Origin: Mycoplasmatales bacterium
GTDB lineage: Bacteria; Bacillota_I; Bacilli_A; CBDATW01
Direction of reading: 5' to 3'
DNA: 64,000 nucleotides
Assembly: GCA_965214965.1 (NCBI GenBank)
Contig: OZ244030.1
Location: 27,334-91,333 of the forward strand
Below are positions 6,979-57,733 of the stretch, one piece after another. The position numbers and the translations under genes were made by a program. Under the pieces are notes generated by a model. The model was given only the letters and a program-made list of their open reading frames with translations, was not told the DNA's origin and searched no databases. The stretch's first letter is position 1. Each line of letters opens with the position of its first letter.

Positions 6979-6979
6979 A

Positions 6980-9900: not shown

Positions 9901-10165
9901 TTGCAAGAAGTGCATCTGGTTTTTCTTTTGCAATGATTTTTTCTAAGTATTCTACAGTTAAAGGTTCCATGTATACAGCATCAGCCATATCAAGGTCAGT
10001 CATAATTGTAGCAGGGTTTGAGTTAGCAAGAATAACCCTGTATCCTTCCTCTTTTAAAGAAATACAAGCTTGGGCACCGGCATAATCAAATTCTGCTGCT
10101 TGGGCAATAATAATTGGTCCTGAACCAATAACTAATATTGATTTAATATCTGTCCTTTTTGGCAT
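6980..10165 (-). CDS. carB: carbamoyl-phosphate synthase large subunit
   Basis: Four track pieces (6980..7462, 7529..7867, 7985..8668, 8828..10165) all share one frame and are separated only by TGA. 1061 aa with two ATP-grasp halves and an MGS-like C-terminus. Confidence 0.97.
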
Positions 10166-11256: not shown

Positions 11257-11257
11257 A

Positions 11258-19620: not shown

Positions 19621-20558
19621 TATTTTGCTTCCTTTGTTTTTTTAATGGTTGTAAATCCTATTGCAATAAATATTAGCGATAGTACTAATGAGACCGGTAC
19701 ATTTGCAATTCTCATAATGTCAGCTTCATTTCTTAGTAGTTCAAGTGATGATCTAATTACACCATAAGAAATAAAGTATGCTCCAAGTTTGCTAAATTTT
19801 GCATTTTTTTCAGCAAGTTTTCAAATAATAATAAATGCAATTATGTTTAAATTACCTTCTATTAGGAATAAAGGCAGCCTATATGCTTTTTTTATAAATA
19901 AATGTTGCACCATAGAATTGCCATAACCTGTAAATAGTCTTATAAGAATAATTGAATAAAATGCTAATGCAATAAATTTAATTCATTCTAAAGTTGTGAT
20001 TTGTTTTGTTGCTTTAATTTTTGCAAATAGTTTAGTTTTTAAAATCATTTTGATGATTAATAGTGCTTGAAGTGTTACTAAAACATAAACTAGAGTTTGT
20101 GTTAGAGATTTTGATATTTTAAATCCATAAACTTCTTGGTTATAAAAGTTACCTCACCTACCGAAAGCTTGCCCAATAAGTGCAAATAACATAATTTCTT
20201 CTAGAAATGACATTATTGTTAATTTAATATTTTTTCTTTTTAAGAATAAGTATGCTCCAATAATTGCACCAATAAGTCCGCCTTGAATAGCTATGCCGCC
20301 TTTTCATGGTTGAAATATTTCTATAATGTTTTTTGAGTAATATGGGATTTTAGAAGTTACATATCATAGCCTAGCTCCTGCTAAACCAGTAAAAAGCATA
20401 AATATTGATATATCATCTAGCATTGTTTTTTTTAGTTTTGGGTATTTTTTAGAAAGTTGAGCTTTTCCAAACTCCATTGCATAAAAAATACCAGAAGCAA
20501 ACATTATTGTGTACATACTAATGTTTAATCCAAGAATTGAAATTTGATTACCCAGCAT
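19620..20558 (-). CDS. lgt: prolipoprotein diacylglyceryl transferase
   Basis: The N-terminal piece 20364..20558 continues in frame through many TGAs. Polytopic protein with a GRWGNF-type motif (FGRWGNFYNQE). TAA at 19620-19622 overlaps the trxB ATG. Sits in the hprK-lgt pair typical of Firmicutes and Mollicutes. Confidence 0.85.
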
Positions 20559-21462
20559 TTTTTGTCCTTTCTAAGTAAAGCCTTAGTGAGCAATGCCCAT
20601 TGCTTTTAACAATTTCATTGGTTACAGCTACTTCAATTAGCATCGAAGTGTTTCTAGCTAGTGCAACTGGAATATTAATTACCGGAACATTAATTCCTAG
20701 TATTTCTTTTTTTTCATTTCTTTGGCCAAGCCTATCAAAGTCAGCATCTTTTGAATATTGCTTCAAGTTAAAAATGTAATCGATTTTGGCAGTATCAAGT
20801 GTAATTGATTCTGAAAAGATTTTAGTAATATCCATGATACCAAGACCTCTAACCTCAATGAGGTTTTTTATATTATCTGGTGACTCTCCAAATAATTCAT
20901 TACCAATTCTTCTAATTATTAATCCATCGTCAACAATAAATTGGTGTCCATTTTTAATAAGTTCTAGAGCTGTTTCTGATTTACCAATCCCTGATTCTCC
21001 AGTAATAATAACACCTTTACCATATATTTGTAAAAACGTTGCATGCATGTTATCTGTTGTAGAAAGTTGTTTAGTAAGAAATTGTGCAATTTGAAATCCT
21101 GTATCGGTATAACCAAATTTTGATTGTGTAATAACTGCACCACATTCCTTTGCTGCTTCAATAATTATCTTTGGAACTTCCACATTTGAAGCAAAAGTAA
21201 TTGCTGAAATTTGTTCTTTAAATATTTTTTTAAGAACTTTTTTTATATCTTCAGCTTTTGAATCCTTGATAAAAGCAGTTTCTTTTCTTCCAAAAATTAT
21301 TATCTTATCTTTATCTTTATCAAAACTGTATCCTGTAAGTTCTAGGCCACCTTTGTTGATGCCTCTACAATTGATACCTATCTTCTTTGCATCATTTATT
21401 GATCCTGTGATAATATCTAGTTTTATTTCCTCAATAATCTTGTCTAATGTAATTGAATTCAT
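20548..21462 (-). CDS. hprK: HPr kinase/phosphorylase
   Basis: 304 aa, intact in the track. VIITGESGIGKSETALELIKNGHQFIVDD P-loop segment and IEVRGLGI signature. Confidence 0.95.
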   Translation of the reverse strand: MNSITLDKIIEEIKLDIITGSINDAKKIGINCRGINKGGLELTGYSFDKDKDKIIIFGRKETAFIKDSKAEDIKKVLKKIFKEQISAITFASNVEVPKIIIEAAKECGAVITQSKFGYTDTGFQIAQFLTKQLSTTDNMHATFLQIYGKGVIITGESGIGKSETALELIKNGHQFIVDDGLIIRRIGNELFGESPDNIKNLIEVRGLGIMDITKIFSESITLDTAKIDYIFNLKQYSKDADFDRLGQRNEKKEILGINVPVINIPVALARNTSMLIEVAVTNEIVKSNGHCSLRLYLERTKNAG

Positions 21463-32114: not shown

Positions 32115-32170
32115 GATATAAAAATAATAAAAACCTTGCTAGTTATTATAACTGCTATTTAATAATTAAT
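32115..32170 (-). repeat. copy R1 of the recurring terminator-promoter module
   Basis: The minus strand reads aaatagcagttataataactagcaaggtttttattat. This shares the core AAATAGCAG...ACTAGCAAGG..TTTTTATTAT with R2-R4. Lies just 3' of the KAP-like gene. Confidence 0.55.
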
Positions 32171-33687: not shown

Positions 33688-33740
33688 TTATATCACACAT
33701 AATAAAAACACTTGCTAGTTTAGTTGGATACTATTTATTC
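33688..33740 (-). repeat. copy R2 of the recurring terminator-promoter module
   Basis: The minus strand reads aaatagtatccaactaaactagcaagtgtttttattatgtgtgatataa. The hairpin is degenerate and is followed by tgtgatataa. Lies between the Abi stop and the KAP-like start. Confidence 0.5.
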
Positions 33741-33772
33741 TATATTAAAATGATACCCTTAAAAATTATCTA

Positions 33773-34690
33773 TTATTTTCATTTTTTATCTCTATTATTT
33801 TGAATTTCTATTGTATTTTGTTGAATAATAATTTTAATTTTATTGGAGTATTTCTCTGCAACTTCCAGTCCTAACTTAAATTTGCAGTGATCTTCTCAAT
33901 CTTTTTCAGGTATTTCATTTTCTAGTGGTTCTATTCTTGATTTATTATCTTTATAATCTGCTTTGATTTCTTGTATAAAGTCTTTTGATATTTCATCATT
34001 AAATAATTCTCATTCTTTATTTATGTATTCAATTATTTTTATTTTTAAATTCCACCTAGTTATAATCTTCATAATTTCTATAAGTATATATACCGATAGG
34101 CTTTGTTGAAAGTTATCACTAAACAATTTTATGAAATTTTTAATGTCTTTACTTAAATTTTTATCTAATATAAAATCAAAATGTTGAATGCAATTTCTGA
34201 TTTTTCTTATTACTTTTTGATCATTTGTATCTAGTTCAAATTCATTATTAAAAATTTGAGAAGATTTTATATATTCCATAAAATATGTGGCATGCTTTGC
34301 CCCGCCAATAATTTTTTGATTATTTTTTAATTTAAAATAATTAATTTTATTTGGGTCGATAAAATCAGATTTTCCAGAAACTAAAAACATTTTTCATTTT
34401 AATTTAAAATTTTCTTCATTTGTTATTTGGTTTTTATTCAAATATGTATTTTTTGTAGATAATGCTGCCATTAGAATTCTTTCAATATTTTCTATATACC
34501 TATAAAAATTCCACCTTATATTAGCTTCTAAGCGATAAAGTTGGTATTTATCTTTTGCAGATGTAATTTTTCCTGACCCTGTACTTGGAAGATGACTATA
34601 AAAATTTTCTACTGCCCTAATAAAATATTGACCTTTTCTATATTGGATGTCTTTTAGTAGGTCAGAATAAATTGTTTTTGTAATTCTCAT
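33773..34690 (-). CDS. Abi_2 (AbiD/AbiF-like) abortive-infection family protein
   Basis: ORFs 34394..34690 and 34010..34390 are in frame and joined by TGA. Reading continues through further TGAs to TAA at 33773-33775. 305 aa. VIRKIRNCIQHFDFI fits the R-N-x-x-x-H core of Abi_2 proteins. Confidence 0.6.
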
Positions 34691-34708: not shown

Positions 34709-34767
34709 TTATATCACATATAATAAAAACAGCCTTGCTAGTTAGTAAGGCTGCTATTTAATTATTA
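34709..34767 (-). repeat. copy R3 of the recurring terminator-promoter module (best preserved)
   Basis: The minus strand reads aaatagCAGCCTTactaactagcAAGGCTGtttttattatatgTGaTATAATtt. This is a 7-bp GC-containing stem plus a T run (res terminator), followed by an extended -10 about 20 nt upstream of the Abi ATG. Confidence 0.6.
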
Positions 34768-36963
34768 TTTAAACTTATCTTTTATAAAATTATTAAATGA
34801 AGTTTTTTTCATTCATTTATCACCTATTTTGCAACTTAAAATAGTATTTTTTGTTTTGCCATCATACATGAATACTGCAAAATCAATGTTTTTGTTGTCT
34901 TCAGCAAATGCATATTTTTTATAAGCACTTAATAACATTTGTGTTTTTTCAGGATTTTTGTCTTGTTCTGCATACCCTTTAACTTCAACAAATATTATTT
35001 TTCCTTTATACTTTACTACAAAGTCAACAAATGATTTACTTATACGACCTAAATCTTCATTGTAATACTCAAAAAATACTTTTGATCCTAATGTAGGTAG
35101 TTTTGCAAAAAACTCAATTCCTTCTTTTATTTTATTAGCTTTTAGAGCGGATTTAAATCTTTTAAAAAATTCTAATTCAGGCCTAGAATCTAAAAATTGC
35201 TCATCTTCATAACCCGTCACCTGTAAATAACCATAATTTTCAAATCAATCTGTCTCAATTTTTTTTAGATTATTATTATCTTTTCATACGCTATAGTAAG
35301 GTATTAATTTATTTGTTTTTTTAATTTTTCATGGTTCATTTAATTTCATTCATTTAGCTGCATGATTTTTAATTTCATTTAATTTTGCTGAGAGAGATAA
35401 AAGTACATATTTTGCAATTTCAAAATGTACCTTATGTTTTATAGCAACCTTATGTAACACATCTTTTAATTCTATAATATGCAATGATTCTTCTAATTTA
35501 CGGCCCTTCTTAATGTTATGAATTTTTAAATATATGTGATTTGGAATAATGTTAGTTCCCAAACCAGTGCCATATTCATCATAAACAATGCTAGTGCTTG
35601 TAAATGCGGCTGTATCTTTCAATTTTATTTCAAATTCTTTGCTCTTAATATATTCTTTTGCTTCTGCTAAATAATCTTTTTTGCTCTTTACAAAAGATAC
35701 ACTTTCTTCATCAATATATCCACTGGGTAATTCAAGATCTTTAAATTCATCTTTTAGTCTATAAGTTGCTTGATCCCTTGTTGATTTTTGAAAATTAGAT
35801 CAAAGATAATAATTATCAGTTATATTATTTTTAACTAAGCTTGGGTATGGGTTTCTCATTATTCTTCCTAAAGTTTGTGTATTTAGTGTTTCAGATGAAA
35901 CATTTCTTAGCTGCAACAACATATTTGCTCTAGGTATATCTCAACCTGTAGCTGGACCAACTTTAAAAATAATAGCGTCAATATGTGAGTCTATTTGTGA
36001 TGCATATTTAAGTGTAGGTTCAACATTTGCTCCAAATACTTCTGGTTTGCTTTCTAAATACTTTAAATATATTAATCCTGCCTTTTTTAACTTAGATTCT
36101 AACATTTCCAACCCTTTATTAAACAATTCGTGCTTTTCAGGATCTATAATAAGGCTAGGTTGGTTAGAAACTTGAATCAGCATAGCGGGATTAATGATTA
36201 TATTTTGAAGTTTTTGATATTCTTTTTTTACTTCTTTGAATTTTTTAATTGCATCATCTATGATTTCTCCGTTAGTAGAATCTTCGGAAATTTTTGATTT
36301 ATTTTCTTTTGTTTTCAAAAGAAACTGATTATCTAATTCAAGATCCTTTGCTGTCATTTCTACAAAGTTAATATCACACTTAGGGGTAGCGGTCATTTCT
36401 AGTGTAAATGTTGCGGCACTTTTCATAGTTTCGTCAAAATTTTTTAACAAATCTTTTGACAATTCTTTTTTACCAATATGTGCTTCATCTCTGATAAAAA
36501 TTAAATCATACTGATAATGTTTTAATTGGTTTATAAAAATTTCAAGTGTTTTGTTTTGATAAAATAATGTATTTTTACCAAAAGAAGAAGTACCGAATAC
36601 ATACACCATATTATTTTCTAATGAAAATTCTGGAATATCTTCAGATTTATTACTTTTTGATTTTGATGGTGAATGTATATGCTGGACTCTATAATTTTGA
36701 TACTGATGATATTGTATGTAATTGTTTAATTTTCTTGCCATTTGTTTTGGCAAGTCTGCGTTAGAAACAGTTGCAACTACTACAACTGTTTTTCTATCTC
36801 TTGAGTTTTGATATTCAAGTATTCTAGAAACTAACTCAGAGGAGATAAAAGTTTTTCCTGAACCTGTAGGTGCTTTTAATGTGGCAAAAGAATGTCTATC
36901 TTTGTTAATAAATGCCTTGAATAGTTTTTGTACTGTTGTTTGTTGTGAATTTGTTAATTGCAT
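34765..36963 (-). CDS. res: type III restriction enzyme Res subunit (SF2 helicase plus C-terminal endonuclease)
   Basis: Pieces 34813..35220, 35350..35622 and 35941..36963 are in frame. Helicase motifs APTGSGKT, DEAH, MTATP and QTLGRIMR. C-terminal VDFVV...IIFVEVKG is PD-(D/E)xK-like. The track stop at 34813 is TGA; TAA is at 34765-34767. Confidence 0.85.
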
Positions 36964-36977
36964 AGTGTGTATTACTT

Positions 36978-38630
36978 TTAAAATTTATCATCTTCATTTT
37001 CTAAAGGATTTAATGCTGCTAAATCATAAAATAAATTAAGATTTTTTTTATTATAGTTACCATCTAATAATTTTAATCCTTTAAGACATGAATCATATAT
37101 TTTATCATTAATGTCTGTTTCAAGGTCTACCTTTAATGAATCGTCTATATTTATAACTCGGAGTTTAGCATTTTTGTATGATTTATTTTTATTTAATCAA
37201 ACAAAATCTTTTTTGCCTATAGTGGATTTTCCCTCAATTATTCTGTAAAGCCTTTCATATGTAACTTCTGTGGCAATATTATTTTCATTATTTGTGCAAA
37301 TAATAAACCTTCTATTGCCATTGTCTTCTCTATTTAATTGTAAAACTGCTTGTGCTGATGTGCCCGAACCTGCAAAAAAATCTAAAAATAATCCGTCTTG
37401 ATGGATAGATCTGTCAAATAATCATTGTATTAATGCTACTGGTTTTGGTGTGCCAAATTTTGAATTATTAAGAATTTGCTTTAAATCTTTTTTCCCAGTA
37501 TTTCTACAATTAAAAACATTTGAATCATCTTGGTAATTATACGTTATTGAATTTTTAGGTGAGACAAGTTTTTTACCATCTCCATTTAAGTAAGATTTTT
37601 TAAATATCATATATGACGATTTATATTTAAATACTTGCAAAAATTGAATATCTTTTTTTAATTTTTCCTTTGACCATGTTCAGCATCCTCTTAAATTATC
37701 TATGTACGGTGGGTGTATTTCTATAAAATCCTTTTTTTCTTTTAGTGATATTTCTCCTTTATCAGAAACTCAAATTCTATATGCGAGATTTTTTCTTGTT
37801 TTTTCGTTAAATTTGTAAGGGTCATCATTGAATAATGGTTTGCCTTTTTTGTAGTTTCCAAAGCTGTCTTGATAAATATATTTGTCTAGCTCATTTTGGG
37901 ATTCTTCGACAATATAATTTGTAAGTGCCATATCTTTATTTTTGCAGTATAATAGTATATATTCATATGTGGAAGAAAAGAGATTATTGCCAAGTGATCT
38001 TCCTTCTTTTTTATTGTATCAATTAATATTTGTAACAAAATTTTGTTCTCCAAAAATATCATCCATCAATACCTTCAGGTATGCTTGTTCATGATCATCA
38101 ATTGACACAAAAATTAATCCATCTTGAGAAAGTAGGTTTTTTGCTAGAGATAATCGGTTTTTCATCATATTTAATCAACCTCCTCTACCAAATTTGTCTT
38201 TATAATCAAACTTAGATGAAGTACCTTGTTTTGAGGATTGGTTACCATCTTTCTTGGCGGATTCAGTATTATAAGGAGGGTCTATATAAATAACATCTAT
38301 TTTACCTTTGTGAGTTAGCAGTAATGCTTTTAATGCATTATAATTATCTCCAATGATTAATTTATTTTCATTGTTTTCAATTTTATCTGAAACATTTATT
38401 CGTCTTTTTTTATCTTCTTTAAGAGTTATTAATCTTCCTTTGGCTATCTCTGGTGAATAGTCAAAAGCAAAGCCCGTTCTTCTTTTCATAAAAATAAAAT
38501 CAGCAATTGCTTGTTCATCGCCTTCTGCAGCATTTTTAAGAATATTAATAGCTATTGTTTTTTGGTCATCATTAAAATATTTGGTTTCAAAATTTTCTAT
38601 TTGTTTTATTAATTGATCTTTTTTTGTCAT
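36978..38630 (-). CDS. mod: type III restriction-modification methyltransferase Mod (N6-adenine, beta class)
   Basis: Codon-by-codon reading joins 38175..38630, an unlisted middle part and 37422..37640 into one frame of 550 aa. IYIDPPYN (motif IV) precedes FFAGSGTSAQA (motif I). TPKPVALIQ motif. It lies 14 nt upstream of res. Confidence 0.88.
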
Positions 38631-38694
38631 AATTAATCCTTAGTAATATAATTTTACCATAATTAAACAACCTAGAAAGCTGTTTGTACTAATA

Positions 38695-39200
38695 TTATTT
38701 ACTTGTTTTTCTAGAAGTTTCTTAAATGGATATTTAATCAGTAATTCTTTGCCCTTAAATTGCCATTATGTAATTCCAAGTTGATTTTTAATTTGAGCAA
38801 CTGTAATTCTTTATATATATATATATGTGTGTGTGTGTGTTAAAAGTATTTTAATCAATTGGTAACATATGCCTTCATATCAATCTGCCAAACATGTTAG
38901 AAAATTATGTTTTAACAATTGCTTTTTCATATGTAGTCTCTTTAGCAGTTTTTTTTATCATTTCTAAAGATATTGATAGCTTGCATCACTATTAAAATAT
39001 TAATAATAAGATCTCATTCTTCATAATTTTGCATAAAGAATTAGGTCAACTTCATAATCTTTTGGGATTTGTTAATAAGTTTGAGCAGGTAAATAATAAA
39101 GGAACCTTACTAACTAACAACACTGTTGTTTAATTAATAATAGATATGTCTTGAAGGTTTTTAGTATATATCAATATATTTAATTGCTTCTTTTTTTATT
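38695..39200 (-). pseudogene. relic copy of the 3' third of the 580-aa HprK-like gene (parent at 42658..about 43160)
   Basis: Colinear nucleotide similarity. 38761-38810 versus 42731-42780 shares taatttgagcaact. 39022-39059 versus 42981-43020 reads cataatt--ttgcataaagaattag[g/a]tcaacttcataatc, with a 2-nt deletion. tttagcag...atttctaaaga is also shared. The stop position is preserved at 38695-38697. There are multiple indels and stops, and the microsatellite lies inside. Confidence 0.7.
38812..38839. repeat. compound dinucleotide microsatellite (TA)7(TG)7
   Basis: tatatatatatata followed by tgtgtgtgtgtgtg, 28 bp of uninterrupted alternating pyrimidine-purine. It lies 182-209 nt upstream of the mod ATG, inside the relic. 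Confidence 0.9.
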
Positions 39201-39256
39201 ATGTAAGTTAGAGCGTTAAATTTTTTGCATTTTTTAATTTTACAGTAAAACTTATT

Positions 39257-40297
39257 CTATTTGATAACGCTAAATACTGGGCTTTTGGCTTGTTTTCTTT
39301 TAATGATTAATTCATCACTAGCCATTTTATCTAATGTACTATGTAAATTTTGTCTTGAATACTTTAATTTTAAGATCTCTTCAATATCTTTAGCTGTAAA
39401 TTCTTTTTGTTTACTAAAGTTAGACTTAATGTATATAGCTAGATAAATAGCAGTTTTTTTATCTGATAAAGAAAGGCCATTGTTAATTTGGATTCCAATA
39501 AATGATATTAATCCATCTATTGCGCAAGAAACTCAATCAAATCACTTTGCAATAATGTTAGTAATATCAAATTCTTTTGTTCCCCTTTCAACACTTTCTC
39601 TTATTTTTGTTAAGTAATCAATATAAGATGAACGCATAACTTTAAAAACAAGAGAAAATACCATTGAATCTAGATACCTTTCTTTTGTTTTAAGATATCA
39701 CCCTGCTAAGATTCTAGACATTTTACCATTGTAATCATAGTAAGGATGAGCATACACAAATCAAAACATTATAATGATTGATTTTAAACGATCATTATGT
39801 GTTAATTCATTACTTTGTATAAATGTAATCAAGCTATCCATTGTTGAATCTAAATATTTTGGATCAAGCGTAAGAAAAGGGTTTTTGGTTGTTCTAGTAA
39901 TTTGGCCATCTTCTTTTCTTCAATAATTTTCATGATTATCAAGTTTATTTTTTTTATTCTTAATAGACATTCACATCAGATCATACAATATTTTGATATT
40001 ATCTTTTGTAATATCTTTATTTTTATCAGTAATATTGTAAATTGAATATAGATTAGAAAGTAATTGTTCATTATCAGTTTCTGGTACTCTTCTATTTGAA
40101 AGTATCTCATCTACAATCTTTTTAGATGATCCTTCGCTTTCTATATCTAGATTATCTTTAATTTCCATTCCTCTATAAAAGTTATGGGCTTGGTAATATC
40201 TTTCTAAAATATGATTAATTTCTGCTGAAAATGAAACAGGATCATTAATCTTATCTGTTTCTATAGTAAATAATAAATCTCCAAGTTTAATTTTCAT
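39257..40297 (-). CDS. Fic/DOC-family protein with degenerate active-site motif and C-terminal wHTH-like domain
   Basis: ORF 39971..40297 continues in frame through TGAs to TAG at 39257-39259. 346 aa. FVYAHPYYDYNGKMSRILAGW aligns to the Fic core HxFx(D/E)GNGRxxR, with F to Y, G to Y and R to K substitutions. Confidence 0.65.
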
Positions 40298-40314
40298 ACA
40301 ATTCTCCTTATTAA

Positions 40315-40377
40315 ATTTTAATATAATGTCAGGTTATTGTCAATGTTTTTAATATTTATTGACAATACCTTGACAAT
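40315..40377 (-). promoter_or_regulatory. Fic promoter with three ATTGACAAT-type boxes
   Basis: On the minus strand: TTGACA (40338-40343), a 17-nt spacer, TAAAAT (40315-40320), then AAGGAG and the ATG. Box copies: attgtcaat 40336-40344, attgacaat 40358-40366 (inverted relative to the first), ttgacaat 40370-40377. Confidence 0.5.
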
Positions 40378-40435
40378 ATTTGTAATAAGGTTATAAATTC
40401 CATTACTTGGATTTTTTTCATAAATACTCTTGTCA

Positions 40436-40487
40436 TAAGTATAATAAAAACAGTTTTGCTATTTAGCAAGGCTGTTTTTTAATTAAT
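40436..40487 (-). repeat. copy R4 of the recurring terminator-promoter module
   Basis: The minus strand reads aaaaaACAGCCTTGCTAaatAGCAAAACTGTttttattat, a hairpin plus T run. It lies just 3' of the degenerate ORF 40512..40835 and upstream of the Fic promoter. Confidence 0.55.
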
Positions 40488-40511
40488 ATTCCGTATTAGT
40501 TTTAAAATTTT

Positions 40512-40835
40512 TTAGTCTATGTTTATATAATTCATTATATCAGGTTTTTTACTTATAATACCTGATTGTTTGCAAAAATTTTGTCGGAGTAGAGTTATTT
40601 TTAGTTCGATCCCCATCTTTTGTTTGCACATAAATGTAGCATAGTAAAATCAGTCTCCTTTTGATTTTTGTTCTTTGCTTTTTTCATTATAATCTTCTCT
40701 TTTTAGGACATCAAATGTAAGATTATGATTAGGTTTATATTTTTTTACTTTTTCTATTATTTTTTTTGGTTTTAGACCCTTTAAATAATAATTTCTGAAT
40801 ATTGACAATATTTGTATTGAGATCCATTGGCAATT
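40512..40835 (-). pseudogene. degenerate start-less ORF, possibly a relic of a second Fic-like C-terminal region
   Basis: An open frame of 107 codons (TGA = Trp) with no ATG near its 5' end. Its 3' part (aaattttgtcggagtagagttatttttag...) resembles Fic 39346-39385 (aaattttgtcttgaatactttaattttaag...). The peptide ...ELKITLLRQNF... compares with the Fic ...LKLKYSRQNL.... Confidence 0.3.
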
Positions 40836-40987
40836 TTACTATTAGCGACTGCATTCATTCAAACAGATCCTCCCCTGCAAATACATAACAAAAAACAGAG
40901 ATATTTTTATGAAATATTTCTTCTATGAAAAATTTTAGAAAAATATCTTTATTTCCTGTGTATTTTAAAGGTGATTTTATTATTGTA

Positions 40988-42592
40988 TTAAGAATTTGTG
41001 ACATAATATGAATATGGTTTAACCCTATTCTTCTCCTCTAAAGTTTCCAAGTGTTTTTTTTCCAAGATGATGCATTCATTTTTTTTTAAATTAACAATGT
41101 AGATTATAGACTCTCCTCTTTTCAAAACTTTGCGTTGTTTTGAACTTAAAAAAAATTCGAACTTATTTACATTTTCTACACTTTTTATTTCAATTTTTTG
41201 CTTCACAAAATTACCAGCAGGTTTTTTCATATATGTTATTATATCATACCCAGCGCCTGCATTTAATTCTCATGTTCGTTCTATTTTTTTTGCTAATTCT
41301 GGTTTTGAAGATTTACTAAGTTTATTATATTCATATTTATAAATGAGTTCTTGAGCTTCATCTCCATGGTCAATTTGTTTTTCTGCTGTTTTGATTTTAT
41401 CCCTTTTTGATCTATCTTTCTTTTTTGCGCTCTGCTCACCATATGTTTTTTCTTGGTCATTAATTTCAAATTCAATAAATATCAGATTTTCATTTAAGTT
41501 TAATACACGTTTCTCTGTTTTTTCTTTCGTTTCTTCTATATTGTGGTCTAAAAAGTACTCTCAATTATCATGTTCAAAATCATTTATAGCTAGTTTTAGG
41601 AGTTGATTCATGTCTTTGAATTCCGCACAATTTAATGATTCTAAAAATTTTAAATTTTTATTATTAATATGAGAGTCGGCAAGTTTAAATATTGTAATTT
41701 CTTCAATTTCTTTTTGAATAGCTTTTAATGCTCTAGAATGATTATCATATGTTGTAATTTGATTAATATATTGTTTGACTTGATTAATGGTTATTTTACT
41801 TTCGAAATTTTTTACATTTCTAAAATACCTGTAAAAAAGTACTTTTTTAATATGATTATTATCTAAATCTGCTTCTTTGGAAGAATTATAAAATTTTTTA
41901 AGATCTTCAATATTGTCAATATTTAAATCACTAAAAAGTAATTGTATGTACTTACTTTGATCAATTTTTTTATTAAAAGTATGGTCAAGCCTCCCAATTC
42001 TATTTAAAAGTAAAACAGCCCACCCATATTCTTTATGTTTTTTAAGATAATCTATTAATGAGCTCGACTGTTTTCTTAGGGTATTATTCTGGTAATAAAA
42101 TATATTAAATTCATTAATAAATATTGCTATATCTTGTTTAAAATAATCAGATAATTCTTTTTTGGTAAATGTCTTACCAATTGCTTCTTCAAATTTTTTC
42201 AAAATTGTTACTAAACTTGCCAGGCCTTCTTTTTTGTTATCATTATAATATGTTAATATGCGGCTTGGGCCAAAATCATTTTGTAAACCTAGAGAGTTTG
42301 TGCCCATTAATCCTAATGATTCATAAACTTTAAAAAAATGTTGGATTTCAATTAATTCATCAGGTTGGGGGAAAAACAATGTGTTCTTAATTGCGTTTTT
42401 CTTTACAAAATGTACTTTTTTATTTAAATCACGATTCCCGAAACAATTTGCTCCAACTAATTGCTTTAGTTTACTATAGGGATCCTTAGCTAAATCTGAA
42501 AAATCTTTTTCATTATTTATGTACGATAATGGTTTTTTTTGTTCTAAAAATATTTTTTTTGATCTTTTTTTGATTTTATTAAATTGTTTCAT
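40988..42592 (-). CDS. 534-aa protein: unassigned N-terminal region fused to a DUF3883-like (restriction-endonuclease-fold) C-terminal module
   Basis: Track ORFs 41561..42592 and 40988..41230 are in frame (573 nt apart) and were joined codon by codon through TGAs at 41561-41563 and 41270-41272. The C-terminus reads GDEAQELIYKYEYNKL...NAGAGYDIITY...QKIEIKSVENVNKFEFFLSSKQRKVL...IIYIV. It has its own TATAAT and an AGGA Shine-Dalgarno sequence. Confidence 0.75.
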
Positions 42593-42657
42593 AGTTATTT
42601 ATCCTAATATCAATATTATACACCTTATAAATACTCATTTAGAGTTATTTATAATTA

Positions 42658-44400
42658 TTATTTACCTGACTTGTCTAGTTCAAGAAGTTGATTAAATAAA
42701 TATTTACCAGCAATTTTTGGGCCTTCCATAGCCATTCCTGGAATTCCTAGTTGGGTTCTAATTTGAGCAACTCTAATGCCTTGTGAATAAATTTTGTCAA
42801 AATATTCTTTTATTAGTGGATCACAGATATCTTTATGTTGAGCTGGACCAAACATATTAGCAAAGTAAGTCTCAACAATACCTTTTTCATCTGTTGTTCC
42901 TTTAGCAGCTCTTTTAGCATTTCTAAAGACATTAATAGCTTCTTCAACTGTTTCAATATCAACAATTGCTTCACCTTTTTCATAATTGTTTGCATAAAGA
43001 ATTAGATCAACTTCATAATCGGCAGAAATTTGTTCATAGGTTGACACTGGAATAACCATTCTAGCGTTAACTTCGGCTTGTGGGTTCATAAAAACACATC
43101 TATCAATTTCTTCATATGGGTATCCTTTTTCAAGGTCATCAACTCTAACAAAAGCTCCTGTTTCAGTACCTGATGTCATCAACTTACCTGATTTATCATC
43201 AAAGAAGAAGTATCCCATGTCATCATAGATGATTGTCATTTCATCAATGTAATCATCTGCTATAACTCTAAACCCTTCTAATGATTCTGATTTACCAGCA
43301 CCTGAGTCCCCGATGATTACAATGTTGTAATCTCTATCTAAGTTTTTAAGTTTTAAGTTAACAGCTGATGCATGAAGTGGTAAGTATTGTTTTTGAATCA
43401 TCATCTTAACATTTGATAATGTAAGAATCATTTTTTTCAAGAATCCAAAGTAATCAATTTCATCAGTATGGTTAGCGTAACCAACAGCAATTTTTGTTTC
43501 TTGATCAATGTAGTAATCAGTTGTTTTATCTTGAGAACCATTGGGGTGACCAAATACATAGATCATATCTGGTTGTTTATCATATTCACCTTCTCTTGCT
43601 ACTTCAAATAAGTTCATTAATGATAAACCTAATGATATAAAGTCAATATTGAAGTAAACAAAGCAAAGATATTTACCAACTTTAATTGGTAACATCATGT
43701 ATTGCTCTGGATCAAGACTAATATCTTTTATAGGATCATTAGTAATAGGTTGAAACATACCAGTTCTTTTGTTTCTTCTTGGATATGTAATAAATGGTGG
43801 TCAAAGAACCATCTGTTTAATCATTGGCACAGTGTTTAGGTGTGCTCATTTTGCAGGAAGTCCTTTAACTTTATATTCAGCAATTTCAACAGCTGCGTTT
43901 GGACCAACAATAAGTTGTCTATACACGTTATGGTTAACCCCCATAACGTGTTCTTCAATTTTTCTGTATGTTTTTAAAATAAGTCTTTGGAAAGCATCAT
44001 TTCAAGTAATGAAAGATTGTGACGTTGAAGACTTCTTGTGCTCTGAGTTTACAACTGTATATCTTTCTAATCTTCTTCAGAAATGGTAGAAGTCTTCAAT
44101 AAATTTAATAAATTCTTCTTTTTTTTCAACCATAGCTTTTTCTTTACCTTCTAGTTCTTCTGGTTTAAAAACTAGAAGTTTTTTAAGAAGTGAAATCATT
44201 GCAGCCGTTGGTTTGCTACCAAGGTGTTCTGTAATGTATCCTCCTTGTTGTGGGTGGTCTTTAATATATCTTAATAGAAAAGCAGATAAGAGTCTTTCAA
44301 AAGTTTCAGAAGCAATAACTTCTGAAGATGACTTACAGTAATCTTTTGAAAAGTTCATTAAAACTGCACGTTCATTGTAATAGTATTTAGTTTGTAACAT
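42658..44400 (-). CDS. 580-aa uncharacterised protein with an HPr-kinase-like P-loop domain
   Basis: ORFs 42658..43758 and 44077..44400 are in frame and joined through TGAs. LPLHASAVNL...VIIGDSGAGKSESLEGFRVIADDYI parallels the bona fide HprK at 20548..21462 ([29 protein letters not shown]). The N-terminal part of about 330 aa cannot be assigned. Confidence 0.75.
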
Positions 44401-44408
44401 AATTTAAT

Positions 44409-45500
44409 TTAACCTTTATATTTTTTTAAATATTTTTTTGATAATCATAATAATTTTTTAATGTGAATTGGTTTTACTAATGTAAGAAAACCTATTCTCA
44501 TATATTGTTTTTTGATAGGTGGTATTCCTGGAGCAATCTGGATACCTCTTTTTTTTAGATATTCAAGATAATTAGTATTATCTTTTATATCTTCATGATA
44601 AAACGCCAAAGTTGAATTACCTTGGTATTTAGGATCTGCAAACATTGTAAAACCTAGCTTTTTTAAACCTTCTTGAACTTTGATTCTGTTTTCATATTTT
44701 TCGTCCTGTAGTTTTGAAAGGGATATTTTTTTAATAGTTTTAAGAGCTTCTTCTAGTTCAAAAAATAATGAAACAGGTGCAGTAGCTGGAACCATAGATG
44801 CTTCTTTTGCAAACTTATCATAGTTAAGAAAATCTAAATAGTAGTTTGTGTTTGTAGTTTTTTTAGCAATTGCTACAGCTTTTTTACTCATTGCACAAAA
44901 TGCAAGTCCTGGATTCATCATAAAACCTTTTTGAGAAGCAAAAGCCACAGCATCAATATTTCATTTACTAAATTCAAATTCATTCATAATTAATCCACTA
45001 ATTGAATCAACACATAATAATTTTTTATGTTTTTTAGTTAATTTACCAAGTGGTTGTAGTTTATTTAAAATTCCAGATGATGTTTCACTATGAGTAACAA
45101 AAATTGCTTTTGCTTTTTTATGTTTTATCAAAGCTTTTTCTACATCTTCAATTTTATAAGTGTGGCCACGTTTATAATTAATAGAATGAACTTTTACTTT
45201 ATGTTTTTTTAAAATATTTGCTCAATAATCTCCAAAAAAACCAATACTAATAAGTATTACTTCTTGGCCTGCAGAAAAAAGACTAGAAACAATCATTTGT
45301 AATGCTCCTGTTCCTGTTGAAGGAATTATAGCTAAATAATCGTCTTTAGATTTTATTAAATCAAGAATTTCATTTCTACAAAAACTGTAAAGCTTCTTGT
45401 GCTCTTCTCCACGGTGGTGGATAAGTTGTTTCAATGATGCTTTAGCAATGTTAGAAGGAACACTTGCCGGGCCTGGCGTAAGTAGTATTCTTTTTTTCAT
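44409..45500 (-). CDS. class V (AGXT/SerC-like) pyridoxal-phosphate aminotransferase
   Basis: Pieces 44445..44948 and 45222..45575 are in frame. ILLTPGPASVP N-terminus and FASQKGFMMNPG (PLP lysine). The start is placed at the ATG at 45498-45500 after AGGAA. The track stop at 44445 is TGA; TAA is at 44409-44411. Confidence 0.85.
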
Positions 45501-45720
45501 TTTATTTCCTATCATGTTGTACAAACATAATAAAACATCATTGTTAATGATTTGTTCTTTGTGTAAAGAGACCAAAATTCATCCATTTTTTGATCCATTC
45601 CTTAGGAAGTGTAGTGAACCTCTAAGAAATTCCGTTCTACTGCCTCTCCATAGCTTCGTTGCAACTACACTGCTCCACTATTTTATTTGCAATAGTACTT
45701 TATTACATTTATACTTAATT
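45501..45720 (-). promoter_or_regulatory. long structured 5' leader (candidate cis-regulatory RNA) upstream of the aminotransferase operon
   Basis: Visibly GC-enriched relative to its flanks. The minus-strand RNA has AGUGUAGU pairing with ACUACACU about 48 nt downstream. It also has UUCC-UAA-GGAA, GAUCAAAA/UUUUGGUC and AUCAUU-AAC-AAUGAU plus a U run, and a hairpin abutting the Shine-Dalgarno sequence. Confidence 0.45.
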
Positions 45721-45782
45721 ATTTTATCATTTTTAACTTATAAAATGAGTTTAAATTTTTAAAAATTATATAAAAATTTGCA

Positions 45783-45810
45783 AAACAAAAAAAGAACATT
45801 ACATGTTCTT
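45783..45810 (-). terminator. intrinsic terminator after ftsH
   Basis: aagaacat-tac-atgttctt is a perfect 8-bp stem. On the minus strand it is followed by a T run, 8 nt downstream of the ftsH stop. Confidence 0.65.
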
Positions 45811-45817
45811 TAATGTA

Positions 45818-50159: not shown

Positions 50160-50765
50160 TTATTCTATATTTTTAATGAATTTTTCTAATTCTAAACCAT
50201 TTTTTAAATCTAAATATTTTTTCATTATTTCTTCTTTAAATTTTGAATGTATGTTGTCATCACTTTCTAACGATTGTATTTTTAGATTTAAATAATTTTT
50301 AGATTTAAAAAATAAATCCTGAATATACAAAGAATAAGCATAAGCAGCTCGCTCATGAGCTTGGGAGAAAGTTTCTCCTGAATTTTCTAACTTAATTTTA
50401 TAAATTAAATGATACATAGTTAAATATGATAATTGCCATACATTTAAAAATTTAGAATTTCGCTCAACAAGATGAAAACTTCCACTAGTATCAGAATCAA
50501 TAGTGTAACTAGTGTAATTTTTTCCTGTTTTGGAGTTTTTATTTTTATTTTTGATGTTTATGAAGCCTAAATCTTGATGATTTGGTAATTGTTTTTCAGC
50601 TAAACTAAACACTTCTGAAATAAGTTTAGTTTCAATATGGGAATCATTTTTAAATTTAATTGCTTTTCCTTTTGTAAATTTTGGCATAAAAGAAATAGTT
50701 GCAACTAATAAGGCAATCATAGATATAAAGATAATAATATATTTTTTAATATTTGAATTTTTCAT
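50160..50765 (-). CDS. signal-anchored paralog family protein, copy 1 (201 aa)
   Basis: MKNSNIKKYIIIFISMIALLVATISF is a hydrophobic N-terminus with no lipobox Cys. Shares a conserved C-terminus, KFKEEIMKKYLDLKNGLELEKFIKNIE, with copy 2. Confidence 0.75.
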   Translation of the reverse strand: MKNSNIKKYIIIFISMIALLVATISFMPKFTKGKAIKFKNDSHIETKLISEVFSLAEKQLPNHQDLGFINIKNKNKNSKTGKNYTSYTIDSDTSGSFHLVERNSKFLNVWQLSYLTMYHLIYKIKLENSGETFSQAHERAAYAYSLYIQDLFFKSKNYLNLKIQSLESDDNIHSKFKEEIMKKYLDLKNGLELEKFIKNIE

Positions 50766-50855
50766 TTGTTTTATTTTTTCTCTTTTTTATCTTACCATAT
50801 ATTTATATTATTAAATAAAATTTTTATCAATATAAATAAAAATATTTTTTAATGT

Positions 50856-51052
50856 TGGATTTAAATAAGACAATATCTTTATCTTGCATTAAAAGATCGC
50901 TTACCAGCATTTTTAACTGTTTGTTCACTTGCTAATTAAACAAAGTCATTATATTTCATTACTTCTGCTATAATAAATGCCTTTTCAAAATAGTGTGAAT
51001 AACTCCTGCACACTGAAAAAACAAAATATCTCTTTCTAAATGTTAAAGCCTT
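50856..51052 (-). pseudogene. relic copy 2 of the ychF 3' end
   Basis: Near-identical to relic 1 and colinear with the true ychF 3' end. Confidence 0.7.
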
Positions 51053-51063
51053 TATTTTTTATT

Positions 51064-51669
51064 TTATTCTATATTTTTAATGAATTTTTCTAATTCTAAA
51101 CCATTTTTTAAATCTAAATATTTTTTCATTATTTCTTCTTTAAATTTTGAATATATGTGGTCGTCACTTTCTAACGATTGTATTTGATAATTTAAATAAG
51201 TTTTAGATTTAAAAAATAAATCCAGAATATACAAAGAATAAGCATAAGCAGCTCGCTGATGAGCTTGGGAGAAATTTTCTCCTGAATTTTCTAACTTAAT
51301 TTTATAAATTAAATGATACATAGTTAAATTTGATAGTTGTAATACATTTTGAAATTTAGAATCTTGCTCAATAATATGAAAACTTCCACTAGTATCAGAA
51401 TCAACAGTATAACTTGTGCTACTTTTTCCTGTTTTGGAGTTTTTAATTTCATTTTTAATGTTTATGAAGCCTAAATCTTGATGATTTGGTAATTGTTTTT
51501 CAACTAAATTAAACACTTCTGAAATAAGTTTAGTTTCAATATGGGAATCATTTTTAAATTTAATTGCCTTTCCTTTTGTAGATTTTGGCATAAAAGAAAT
51601 AGTTGTAATTAATAAGGCAATCATAGATATAAAGATAATAATATATTTTTTAATATTTGAATTTTTCAT
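51064..51669 (-). CDS. signal-anchored paralog family protein, copy 2 (201 aa)
   Basis: Same length and ends as copy 1, with substitutions concentrated in the central third. It lies 904 nt from copy 1. Confidence 0.75.
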   Translation of the reverse strand: MKNSNIKKYIIIFISMIALLITTISFMPKSTKGKAIKFKNDSHIETKLISEVFNLVEKQLPNHQDLGFINIKNEIKNSKTGKSSTSYTVDSDTSGSFHIIEQDSKFQNVLQLSNLTMYHLIYKIKLENSGENFSQAHQRAAYAYSLYILDLFFKSKTYLNYQIQSLESDDHIYSKFKEEIMKKYLDLKNGLELEKFIKNIE

Positions 51670-51757
51670 TTGTTTTATTTTTTCCCTTTTTTATCTTACC
51701 ATATATTTATGCTATTAAATAAAATTTTTATCAATATAAATAAAATATTTTTAATAT

Positions 51758-51965
51758 TGAATTTAAATAAGACAATATCTTTATCTTGCATTAAAAGATA
51801 ACTTACCAACATTTTTAACTGTTTGTTCACTTGCTAATTAAACAAAGTCATTATATTTAATAACTTCTGCCATAATAAATACTGTTTCAAAATAGTGTGA
51901 ATAACTTTTGCACACTGAAAGAGCAAAATATTCCTTTCTAAATTTTCAAGTTCTTACTTTTTTTA
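51758..51965 (-). pseudogene. relic copy 3 of the ychF 3' end
   Basis: Colinear with 52806-53040. More diverged than relics 1 and 2. Confidence 0.65.
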
Positions 51966-52023
51966 TTTTATATTTTTCTTATGTACTTAATTAATTTTTC
52001 TAATTCTAAAACATTTTTTAAAT

Positions 52024-52740
52024 CTAAATATGTTTTTTTAATTTTTCTGTTAATTTTTCTGCAGAATCTACAATAGATTTCTCAAATAAAATTGATTTTT
52101 TTATATCTTTAATGAACATTTCTAATTTTAAACCATTTTTTAAATCTAAATATTTTTTCATTATTTCTTTTTTAAATTTTGAATCTGGATTGCTGTTATT
52201 TTCTAATGATTCTATTTTATAATTTAAATAAGTTTTAGATTTAAAAAATAAATCCTGAATATACAAAGCATAAGCATAGGCAGCTACTTCATCAGTTTTG
52301 GTAAAATCGCTTCCTACATTTTCTAACTCTAGATTACTTCATCCTCATCCTATATCTATTTTATAAATTAAATGATACATAGTTAAATATGACAATTGCC
52401 ATACTTTTTCAAATTCTGAAGTTTTAGATTTATCTGCAGTAATATAAAAACTTCCACTAGTATCAGAATCAAAAATATATTCCATGGAATAATTATCCTT
52501 TGTTTTGGAGTTTTTAATTTTGTTTTTAATTTTTACAAAGCCTAAATCTTGATAATTTGGTAATTGTTTTTCAACTAGACTAAACACTTCTGAAATAAGT
52601 TTAGTTTCAATATTGGAATCATTTTTAAATTTAATTGCCTTTTCTTTTGTAGATTTTGGTATAGAAAAAATAGTTGCAACTAATAAGGCAATCATAGATA
52701 TAAAGATAATAATATATTTTTTAATATTTGAATTTTTCAT
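52024..52740 (-). CDS. signal-anchored paralog family protein, copy 3 (238 aa, diverged and extended)
   Basis: ORFs 52345..52740 and 52024..52266 are in frame and joined by TGAs. Same N-terminus as copies 1 and 2, with an insertion in the middle and a different C-terminal tail. Confidence 0.7.
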
Positions 52741-57720: not shown

Positions 57721-57733
57721 GTTTTTCTCCTAT

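Follow-up and report, generated by a model that had tools for sequence, protein, structure and literature searches.

Phosphoenolpyruvate carboxykinase (PEPCK) acts at the PEP/pyruvate/oxaloacetate node, by which anaplerosis and gluconeogenesis are controlled. In these enzymes Y207, K213, H232 and R333 (PckA numbering) hold the Mn2+, the enolate and the CO2 site. The HPr kinase/phosphorylase (HprK/P, PF07475) has a nucleotide-binding core in common with PEPCK. The gene described here lies on the minus strand at 42658..44400 of the window, by which we mean the whole 64-kb stretch of DNA that was analysed, and encodes a protein of 580 aa. Like the ATP-dependent PEPCK (PckA, PF01293, EC 4.1.1.49), this protein has a two-domain fold (E 7e-15), a similar overall length, the P-loop GxSGxGK[ST] with a His before it, the motifs YxGxMKK and NxR, and a lid of the form A-K-x-x-G-T-E-x-G. 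Unlike PckA, it carries an additional helical N-terminal region of ~120-155 residues and a longer helix between the P-loop and the DD pair; the R65 motif 'GRSPKDK' is unrecognisable, R449 and T455 are replaced, identity is 10-16% and the window protein fails the Pfam model. The GTP-dependent class (PF00821/PF17297, EC 4.1.1.32) gives structural matches equal to those of the ATP class (2fah, E 7.7e-15; the Mycobacterium tuberculosis, rat and Corynebacterium enzymes are also among them), whereas a weak PEPCK_GTP match was found in only one of 37 family members (E 0.16). HprK/P has the His, the P-loop GxSGxGKSE and the hydrophobic strand with DD in common with the 580-aa protein, but the latter is twice as long, contains the PEPCK substrate motifs and lacks the HprK N-terminal domain and the EVRGLG signature. 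Around the His and P-loop, 22 of the 37 members match DUF4914 (PF16260) weakly, at 2e-4 for the best of them and at a sub-threshold 5.6e-4 for the window protein, but the matches cover only ~50 residues and, since DUF4914 is itself uncharacterised, give no functional information. The gene upstream is a full-length member of the AGXT-type class V aminotransferases, which include serine-pyruvate, alanine-glyoxylate, aspartate-glyoxylate (BhcA) and PhnW enzymes, but it falls under every NCBIfam equivalog cut-off for them.

The PEPCK-like gene and its family

The gene is a single intact ORF under genetic code 4 (UGA = Trp) and is split into pieces when read with table 11. All four of its Trp codons are in-frame TGA, including that of W108, a residue invariant across the family. 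Soluble orthologues that need no recoding are present in Clostridium and Fusobacterium. A homologue search with the 580-aa protein gave 1992 matches, the best 120 of which are full-length, 41-48% identical and spread over several phyla. Homologues were found in Clostridium, Fusobacteria, Erysipelotrichales, Bacteroidales and a few Mollicutes, and at least 321 species-representative genomes carry the family. Among 37 aligned family sequences some 90 columns do not vary, and the window protein retains all of them. Current names of family members are 'hypothetical protein' or 'phosphoenolpyruvate carboxykinase', and full-text literature searches found no experimental study or measured activity of the family. 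The best reading is that these proteins are widespread, experimentally uncharacterised and deeply divergent homologues of PEP carboxykinase.

Fold and profile evidence

The AF2 model of the 580-aa protein (pLDDT 86.4, pTM 0.86) has the two-domain fold of PEPCK. When it was compared with the PDB by Foldseek, the best 50 matches were all ATP- or GTP-PEPCKs (E 7e-15 to 5e-12, probability 1.0), at a modest TM of 0.36-0.46 over 360-475 aligned columns and at 10-16% identity. Alignment of the family profile with Escherichia coli PckA by hhalign (probability 86-93%, E 4e-7 to 5e-6) placed family-invariant residues under PckA Y207, G209, K212, K213, H232, S250, K254, T255, N331, R333, E395 and G397. 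The homologues collected for E. coli PckA were all from Enterobacterales, at 86-93% identity, and scarcely improved the PEPCK profile. Weak PEPCK_ATP (PF01293) matches were obtained with Pfam for 36 of the 37 relatives (best E 3.5e-6); the same model gave no match at E<=1 on the window protein or on the relative P0001, and its gathering threshold was not reached. Searches of the window protein against Pfam and NCBIfam returned nothing above cut-off, the sub-threshold matches being to DUF4914 and hpr-ser only. Sequence searches of solved structures, with the single protein and with the family profile, gave nothing significant (PEPCK 1j3b at E 1.8, in the P-loop).

The first-pass annotation had treated the regions on both sides of the P-loop as unassignable. 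As modelled, however, the PEPCK fold spans most of the protein, roughly from residue 120-160 to 578, and the flanks contain the YxGxMKK and NxR motifs and the AKxxGTExG lid, all of which are absent from HprK. Residues 1-155 (43936..44400, minus strand; boundaries approximate) form a family-specific N-terminal region, mostly helical according to the secondary structure of the AF2 model, with no confident PEPCK counterpart in hhalign, where the confident core is residues 261-460. At low stringency the alignment with PckA begins at residue 121 under some settings and at residue 54 under others.

Catalytic motifs

Among the PckA sites, H232 is a Mn2+ ligand, R333 binds substrate and phosphoryl group, R65 binds the substrate carboxylate and R449/T455 bind adenine. 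The YxGxMKK-type motif Y317-F-G-F-L-K322-K323 (43432..43452, minus strand, as are all features of this gene) is aligned by hhalign to PckA Y207...K212/K213, and H343 (43372..43374) to the Mn2+-ligand His H232 as well as to the HprK His; all 37 sequences have Y317, G319, K322, K323 and H343. The kinase-1a P-loop GxxGxGK[TS] is present as G364-DSGAGKS-371 (43288..43311), aligned to PckA G248-LSGTGKT-255. It is likewise invariant in all 37 homologues, and the P-loop segment to which the first-pass annotation had drawn attention is real and conserved. N445-A-R447 (43060..43068) falls on PckA N331-T-R333, with both the N and the R invariant. A lid, A499-KGTTDEKG-507 (42880..42906), is found in a low-stringency part of the alignment on PckA AKLAGTERG, with E505/G507 under E395/G397 and with A, K, G, T, T, E and G invariant.

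The invariant pair D393-D394 (43219..43224), which closes the strand that follows the P-loop helix, is proposed as the kinase-2/Walker-B pair and is aligned to the DD of HprK. In the hhalign comparison PckA D268/D269 fell onto E387/M388, and D393/D394 onto D274/D275; we infer that D393/D394 are the equivalent of D268/D269, which is favoured by the HprK alignment and the strand pattern. A counterpart of PckA R65 ('GRSPKDK' motif) was not located in the alignment, where this region is gapped and of low confidence; the invariant arginines R161 and R212 are candidates for its role. The adenine-binding R449/T455 are not conserved, the aligned columns being E/D and A.

Relationship to HPr kinase

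The window encodes its own canonical HprK (20548..21462, minus strand). By default, profile comparison with it aligned 16 P-loop columns only (probability 21-22%). An extended alignment also brought the HprK His under H343 and the DD of 'FIVDD' under D393/D394, and for this reason the pairing of 'VIADD' with that DD made earlier was misplaced, by 11 residues; its ADD is not conserved, the family consensus being LSExY. With TIGR00679 the window protein scored 11.6 bits (E 0.12) and so missed the cut-off of 240, and PF07475 (Hpr_kinase_C) matched in four of the 37 relatives at E >= 0.13. The signature E[VI]RG[LIM]G, which is EVRGLG in the window HprK, is absent from the 580-aa sequence on direct reading, and no HprK N-terminal domain was found in the protein. 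The P-loop similarity to HprK behind the description HPr-kinase-like is real and conserved, but what the two proteins have in common is limited to the His, the P-loop and the DD segment. Given the PEPCK motifs, and PEPCK_ATP matches in 36/37 members against Hpr_kinase_C matches in 4/37, HprK is the more distant relative within the PEPCK/HprK P-loop group. The broader suggestion of a phosphotransfer enzyme holds up: the 580-aa protein very probably is one.

The aminotransferase, the leader and the decayed copy

The upstream gene (44409..45515, minus strand) encodes a class V, AGXT-type aminotransferase (PF00266, Aminotran_5, E 1.2e-31, residues 30-330). Translation probably begins at 45500, with the second ATG, which is preceded by AGGA and gives a protein of 363 aa; the relative P0270, also 363 aa, begins MKKRILL, which fits this start. 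The best PDB relative is 2dr1, a 'serine aminotransferase' (E 1.2e-54, residues 8-358), followed by serine-pyruvate and alanine-glyoxylate enzymes. All NCBIfam equivalogs (PhnW/AepZ, BhcA) remained below their cut-offs on this protein, the best with 178 bits against 361; BhcA was the second-best match. The closest relatives are only 34-37% identical. One relative, at 33% identity, is followed by serA, as would be expected for a phosphoserine aminotransferase.

Between the two genes there are 8 nt (44401..44408, minus strand): the TAA stop of the aminotransferase is followed by ATTAAATT and then by the ATG of the PEPCK-like gene. No terminator-like or strong promoter-like site was found between them on the minus strand. 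The 317-nt leader from the ftsH stop to the aminotransferase (45501..45817, minus strand) contains the ftsH terminator hairpin, an A+T-rich stretch and a G+C-richer core with predicted stems. The first-pass annotation had called this leader long and structured. This is only weakly supported, with a folding z-score of -2.69, one of 100 shuffles folding as well, and no Rfam match, either for the whole window at gathering thresholds or for the leader at E<=1. The Rfam searches therefore do not support a T-box or a known riboswitch.

The last ~130 codons of the PEPCK-like gene are present a second time ~4 kb away, beside a type III Mod/Res pair, as a decayed copy that is non-coding. Within the window, 38701..39081 and the 3' end of the gene at 42669..43042 are 72-73% identical in DNA (E 1.6e-49), and the copy extends to 38637..39081 (minus strand) when the comparison is made with locus L008. 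It marks the far end of an inserted cassette block. As had been proposed, the gene lies at an island boundary: it borders a variable defence island, and its 3' end is duplicated there in decayed form.

Gene neighbourhoods

The pairing with a class V aminotransferase 8 nt upstream in the same orientation, reported earlier for this locus, recurs in other lineages. Such a gene lies directly upstream in the window, in L008, M. testudineum, [M.] testudinis, L011, L041, L091/L093 and L092, loci that are scattered on the family tree. The order aminotransferase, then PEPCK-like gene, is found in at least seven scattered lineages, with gaps ranging from an overlap to 73 nt. In Fusobacteria, the place just upstream of the PEPCK-like gene is taken by a class I AspC/TyrB-like aminotransferase (L028, L043 and L048); in L066 one gene stands between the two. 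PEP carboxylase (PF00311, 1081 bits) is directly downstream in five Bacteroidales loci and is followed by aroA, while an AsnC/Lrp regulator adjoins the PEPCK-like gene in 28 Clostridium loci. Some loci have an amino-acid permease, an M20D amidohydrolase, threonine dehydratase or AsnA nearby; a tartronate-semialdehyde-reductase-like gene is near that of L092, and an IlvA-type threonine/serine dehydratase near those of L091 and L093. In the window itself, pyrB, carA, pyrC, purA and purB are all present. Taken together, these gene contexts suggest the PEP/oxaloacetate/aspartate node.

Most family members have no adjacent aminotransferase (about 70 of the 80 loci from genomes). Conversely, many near relatives of the aminotransferase lack a PEPCK-like gene and lie in KdsA-AT-Lgt arrays (L094, L096-L099, L118 and L131), and none of 80 metagenome loci of aminotransferase relatives carries a PEPCK-like gene. 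The closest of these loci are KdsA-AT-Lgt arrays, and the coupling is therefore not a trait of the whole aminotransferase subfamily. Signal peptidase, MscS, SDR, ArgH, Fhs and MnmG neighbours, most of them identified by eye, are lineage-specific and uninformative. The tRNA ligase by the M. testudineum gene, considered as AspRS/AsnRS, is LysRS and gives no support for an aspartate link.

Proposed function

Homology, fold, conservation of the catalytic motifs and gene linkage are observed, and from them we infer substrate, nucleotide and direction. With roughly even confidence, we propose that the PEPCK-type enzyme and the aminotransferase interconvert PEP, oxaloacetate and aspartate. The substrate, at first regarded as unknown, can be narrowed to one of the 2-oxo acids around the PEP/oxaloacetate node. 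The PEPCK-like enzyme, with its family-specific helical N-terminal region and the PEPCK-like catalytic core after it, would carry out metal- and nucleotide-dependent PEPCK-type chemistry (oxaloacetate <-> PEP + CO2), and the class V aminotransferase, probably co-transcribed, would link oxaloacetate to aspartate. Both enzymes would then form a two-step shunt, PEP <-> oxaloacetate <-> aspartate. In this Mollicute the more economical course would be PEP + CO2 + NDP -> oxaloacetate + NTP, followed by oxaloacetate -> aspartate; the carboxylating direction would conserve the phosphoryl energy of PEP and could supply the aspartate carbamoyltransferase and the adenylosuccinate synthase that the window encodes. 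For amino-acid fermenters the reverse, PEP-forming direction would be equally plausible. There is precedent for aspartate, as AGXT-family aminotransferases include aspartate-using enzymes, while it counts against this role that the closest solved or named relatives of the aminotransferase use serine, alanine or glyoxylate. Bacteroidales have canonical PckA, and the PEPCK-like family need therefore not be redundant with it.

In a second, somewhat unlikely reading the protein is a PEPCK-fold kinase acting on another small acid that is linked to the aminotransferase (hydroxypyruvate, glycerate, a serine/phosphoserine-type compound or a further 2-oxo acid, for instance 2-oxobutyrate) and the pair is a utilisation or salvage module for serine or another amino acid. 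It would agree with an AGXT-family aminotransferase whose closest solved relative is the serine aminotransferase 2dr1, with serA after the 33%-identical relative, with the tartronate-semialdehyde-reductase-like (L092) and IlvA-type dehydratase (L091, L093) genes, with the N-terminal region unique to the family, and with the failure to find an R65 equivalent or the adenine-binding residues of PEPCK in the alignment. Against this, no change is seen across the family in the counterparts of Y207, K213, H232 and R333 or in the lid, and the independent linkages to PEP carboxylase and AspC-like genes suit oxaloacetate better than hydroxypyruvate. We know of no PEPCK-fold enzyme with a hydroxypyruvate-, glycerate- or serine-type substrate.

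It is improbable that the pairing is a positional accident of two independent housekeeping genes in a compact genome. Each gene also occurs without the other, and in the L011 lineage the PEPCK-like gene resembles an insertion into a conserved KdsA-AT-Lgt array, but accident would have to produce one gene order in at least seven phylogenetically scattered lineages, and an unrelated aminotransferase class in the same position in Fusobacteria. More improbable still is an HprK/P-like regulatory kinase/phosphorylase acting on a protein, for which the aminotransferase and a PTS component would be candidates. The order His...GxSGxGKSE...DD common to the protein and the window HprK would suit such a role, as would the very weak Hpr_kinase_C matches in 4/37 members (E >= 0.13); however, confident alignment is limited to 16 columns at 21-22% probability, EVRGLG and the HprK N-terminal domain are both absent, all top 50 structural matches are PEPCKs, PEPCK-specific motifs are conserved outside the P-loop and the genome already has a canonical HprK.

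Significance

A link between glycolysis, oxaloacetate and aspartate was proposed for Mollicutes in 1988; it was deduced from enzyme assays and has never been assigned genes (PMC3658275, PMC4866288). Protein evidence for the oxaloacetate-aspartate link is cited as lacking in M. pneumoniae, and models of swine mycoplasmas reported no aspartate transaminase candidate (PMC3658275, PMC4866288); labelling excluded a connection from sugar to aspartate in M. pneumoniae (PMC3658275).

We tentatively suggest, with a little less than even confidence, that the family is an unrecognised nucleotide-dependent PEPCK sequence class, separate from the ATP, GTP and PPi classes, which together with the aminotransferase may provide some Mollicutes with a route from glycolytic PEP to aspartate that fixes CO2 and conserves ATP. 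If so, a third nucleotide-dependent PEPCK lineage would alter the metabolic reconstructions of many gut and oral anaerobes, and Clostridium, Fusobacterium and Bacteroidales would have a second PEP/oxaloacetate enzyme. If oxaloacetate is not the substrate, the family would instead be the first case of a PEPCK-fold enzyme that acts on another small molecule. The family is retained in a few genome-reduced Mollicutes, and on the PEP/oxaloacetate/aspartate reading the two genes would be those of the Mollicute glycolysis-oxaloacetate-aspartate link and concrete candidates for a route from sugar to aspartate.

Relationship to phosphoenolpyruvate carboxykinases

The gene at 44400..42658 (minus strand) encodes a protein of 580 residues when UGA is read as tryptophan (code 4). 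The window has 29% G+C and contains long ORFs only under this reading, and all four Trp codons of the gene are TGA. The code-4 translation is validated by W108, since this TGA-encoded residue falls on a column that is invariant among homologues from code-11 organisms.

Sequence-only methods are nearly blind to the relationship of this protein, while structure and profile methods are clear. Pfam and NCBIfam gave DUF4914 and HprK matches only, all sub-threshold, and sequence searches with the protein or with the family profile matched no solved structure. The family alignment was used to build an AlphaFold2 model (pLDDT 86.4, pTM 0.86), which was compared with the PDB by Foldseek; the 50 best matches were all PEP carboxykinases (PEPCK), of both the ATP and the GTP classes, with E values of 7e-15 to 5e-12, probability 1.0, TM 0.36-0.46 and 10-16% identity over 360-475 aligned columns. 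In hhalign, the family matched E. coli PckA, the ATP-dependent enzyme, with a probability of 86-93% (E 4e-7 to 5e-6). Weak matches to Pfam PEPCK_ATP were found in 36 of 37 family members, and to Hpr_kinase_C in four of the 37.

Several PckA residues are aligned with positions invariant in the family: Y207, G209, K212 and K213 with Y317, G319, K322 and K323; H232 with H343; S250, K254 and T255 with S366, K370 and S371; N331 and R333 with N445 and R447; and E395 and G397 of the lid with E505 and G507, within AKGTTxEKG. In the hhalign comparison the invariant D393/D394 line up with D274/D275 of PckA, rather than D268/D269, and in the alignment to HprK these residues fall on its DD. A hydrophobic strand ending in DD is common to PEPCK and HprK, and the helix-strand pattern predicted around D393/D394 in the AlphaFold2 model fits this arrangement. 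An equivalent of PckA R65 was not located in the family alignment. The family differs from PckA in that the adenine-contact positions are not conserved, and residues 1 to about 120-155 of the protein are helical and family-specific.

The first-pass annotation described an HPr-kinase-like P-loop in an otherwise unassignable protein and proposed a profile search and a structure prediction; both point to PEPCK over HprK. The relationship to HprK is true but distant, as the P-loop is the only part that can be aligned with some confidence to the HprK encoded in the window (probability 21%), and PEPCK is the nearer relative. The supposedly unassignable flanks are mostly PEPCK core, as seen in the model, Foldseek and hhalign.

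The protein is not an orphan, but a member of a large family. A search of 5.8 billion proteins returned 1992 matches, the best 120 of which are full-length with 41-48% identity; one homologue with 98% identity comes from a metagenome contig. When representatives were scanned exhaustively with HMMER, 453 clusters at 50% identity were obtained, and at least 321 loci were confirmed in a scan with one genome per species. The confirmed loci belong to Clostridium sensu stricto, Erysipelotrichales, Turicibacter, Haloplasmataceae, Mycoplasmatota, Fusobacterium/Cetobacterium/Ilyobacter, and Dysgonomonas and other Bacteroidales. The alignment of 37 members has ~90 invariant columns and a mean column identity of 66%; the neighbour-joining tree agrees with taxonomy for the most part, and its Mollicute branches are long. 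Homologues are named 'hypothetical protein', 'phosphoenolpyruvate carboxykinase' or 'putative P-loop kinase or ATPase distantly related to phosphoenolpyruvate carboxykinase', and these names appear to rest on weak similarity. No paper on the family was found in the literature, and we rate it as a distinct, untested family within the already known PEPCK superfamily.

Organization of the locus

A class V aminotransferase gene (AT; PF00266, E 1.2e-31) lies upstream at 45515 or, more likely, 45500..44409 (minus strand). Its 3' end reads GGT TAA, followed by ATTAAATT and the ATG of the PEPCK-like gene, which bears out the 8-nt gap noted earlier; no terminator-like site was found between the two genes on the minus strand. 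The 317-nt spacer 5' of AT (45501-45817, minus strand) comprises the ftsH terminator hairpin, an A+T-rich stretch and a G+C-richer core (45540-45700; 35% G+C against 26% over the whole leader). The core contains an 8-bp long-range stem, AGUGUAGU/ACUACACU, and the leader has a folding z-score of -2.69. A search of Rfam at E<=1 found nothing. The sister contig (L008) carries an identical core, and the element was not found beyond these two sequences; judging from sequence and predicted folding, it may be a cis-regulatory RNA of an unrecognised kind.

The decayed second copy of the 3' end reported in the first-pass annotation is real, as 38701..39081 matches 42669..43042 with 72% identity over 391 nt (E 1.6e-49). 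From 42648 upward the window is collinear with L008 at 98%, and this synteny ends 10 nt beyond the stop codon. Below this point lie, in this order, a PDC-S36-like gene (40988-42592), a SoFic-like gene (39257-40297), the decayed copy (38637-39081) and a type III restriction-modification pair (34765-38630) composed of Mod (36978-38630; N6_N4_Mtase, 9.6e-31) and Res (34765-36963; PADLOC REase_III, 3e-76). Two further elements lie downstream of Res: an unassigned gene of 305 aa at 33773-34690 and, at 33078-33572, a short fragment resembling nSTAND3. At the same junction in L008, GmrSD, a Dam methylase, HNH, an SLFN-type helicase and others replace the first cassette, and the SoFic-like gene is common to both. 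Because the intact and decayed 3' ends flank the defence-type block (38637-42657) as direct repeats, the arrangement looks like the outcome of an insertion into the 3' end of the gene that replaced the original end; an integrase was not seen.

Five copies of a palindromic, terminator-like repeat of ~51 nt (32120-32170, 33696-33746, 34719-34769, 39091-39141 and 40440-40490), with the core AGCCTTGCTAGTTAGTAAGGCT followed by a T-run on the minus strand, are present. Four stand just 3' of a cassette gene (a 197-aa gene, the 305-aa gene, Res and the SoFic-like gene) and the fifth about 500 nt past the PDC-S36-like gene. Cassettes in L008 are flanked by related copies, and the repeats may serve as terminators common to the cassettes and as stretches of homology through which cassettes are exchanged. 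Elsewhere in the window, three tandem paralogues of 201, 201 and 238 aa (50160-52740, minus strand) have near-identical signal-peptide-like N-termini (MKNSNIKKYIIIFISMIALL...) and about 80-90% DNA identity to each other and to the L008 copies, which suggests a gene family for variable surface proteins or lipoproteins.

Gene neighbourhoods

The PEPCK-like gene stands alone in most lineages, and three associations recur. A class V AGXT-type AT lies directly upstream on the same strand, with a gap ranging from overlap to 73 nt, in Mollicutes (the window, L008, Mycoplasma testudineum L004 and [Mycoplasma] testudinis L090), Turicibacter (L041), a Fusobacteriales MAG (L011) and two or three uncultured lineages (L091/L093, L092). 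In Fusobacterium, Cetobacterium and related contigs, a class I AspC/TyrB-like aminotransferase (sub-threshold) occupies the same position. In five Bacteroidales loci (L047, L049, L052, L053, L065) PEP carboxylase (1081 bits) is directly 3', with aroA next in four, where three consecutive enzymes thus use or produce PEP. AroA and KdsA are both PEP consumers. An AsnC/Lrp regulator adjoins the PEPCK-like gene in 28 Clostridium loci, and some AT-linked loci also carry an amino-acid permease, M20D amidohydrolase, IlvA-type dehydratase or AsnA.

Co-occurrence with AT, which the first-pass annotation proposed to test, recurs in lineages scattered across the family tree, but the two genes are not always coupled: the PEPCK-like gene is missing from all 80 metagenome loci that carry AT relatives. 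The order in L011 is kdsA-AT-PEPCK-like-lgt, while relatives (L094, L096-L099, L118 and L131) have kdsA-AT-lgt; Leptotrichia-like genomes retain KdsA-AT-Lgt without the PEPCK-like gene. In another locus (L095, 5001-7719) an AT relative with 33% identity directly precedes a full-length SerA (2-Hacid_dh, PGDH_inter and ACT), so part of the AT clade probably acts as phosphoserine aminotransferase.

Proposed function

The occurrence of two unrelated aminotransferase classes in the same position argues that the substrate or product of the PEPCK-like enzyme is a 2-oxo acid. The nearest named relatives of AT use serine or alanine, which would suit a less probable alternative, a PEPCK-fold kinase whose substrate is of the serine or hydroxypyruvate type. 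The 2-oxo acid is most parsimoniously oxaloacetate, because the PEPCK residues for the metal, enolate and CO2 site and the lid are conserved, and because of the linkage with PEP carboxylase. With oxaloacetate, the enzyme would convert PEP, CO2 and NDP to oxaloacetate and NTP, and AT would then transaminate oxaloacetate to aspartate. In this way the pair may supply aspartate without giving up the ATP otherwise gained through pyruvate kinase. The catabolic direction, from aspartate through oxaloacetate to PEP, would be equally possible, above all in amino-acid fermenters.

The NCBIfam scan identified pyrB (aspartate carbamoyltransferase, 12520-13407), pyrC (dihydroorotase, 11258-12529), carA (10165-11256), purA (adenylosuccinate synthase, 57734-59008) and purB (adenylosuccinate lyase, 56428-57720), all on the minus strand, indicating that the organism consumes and needs aspartate. 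On the same strand, carB (6980-10165) and pyrD/F/E-like ORFs (within 5408-13407) were recognised by eye only. A de novo pyrimidine set together with purine-salvage genes (5408-13407 and 56428-59008) is unusual for a genome-reduced Mollicute.

A link from sugar through oxaloacetate to aspartate was reportedly suggested for Mollicutes by Manolukas et al. in 1988, as later papers cite it. Supporting protein evidence for the link is absent, and it was excluded in M. pneumoniae by 13C labelling (PMC3658275); models of swine mycoplasmas have no aspartate transaminase candidate (PMC4866288). For those few Mollicutes that have the AT and PEPCK-like pair, the two genes are a candidate for this link.
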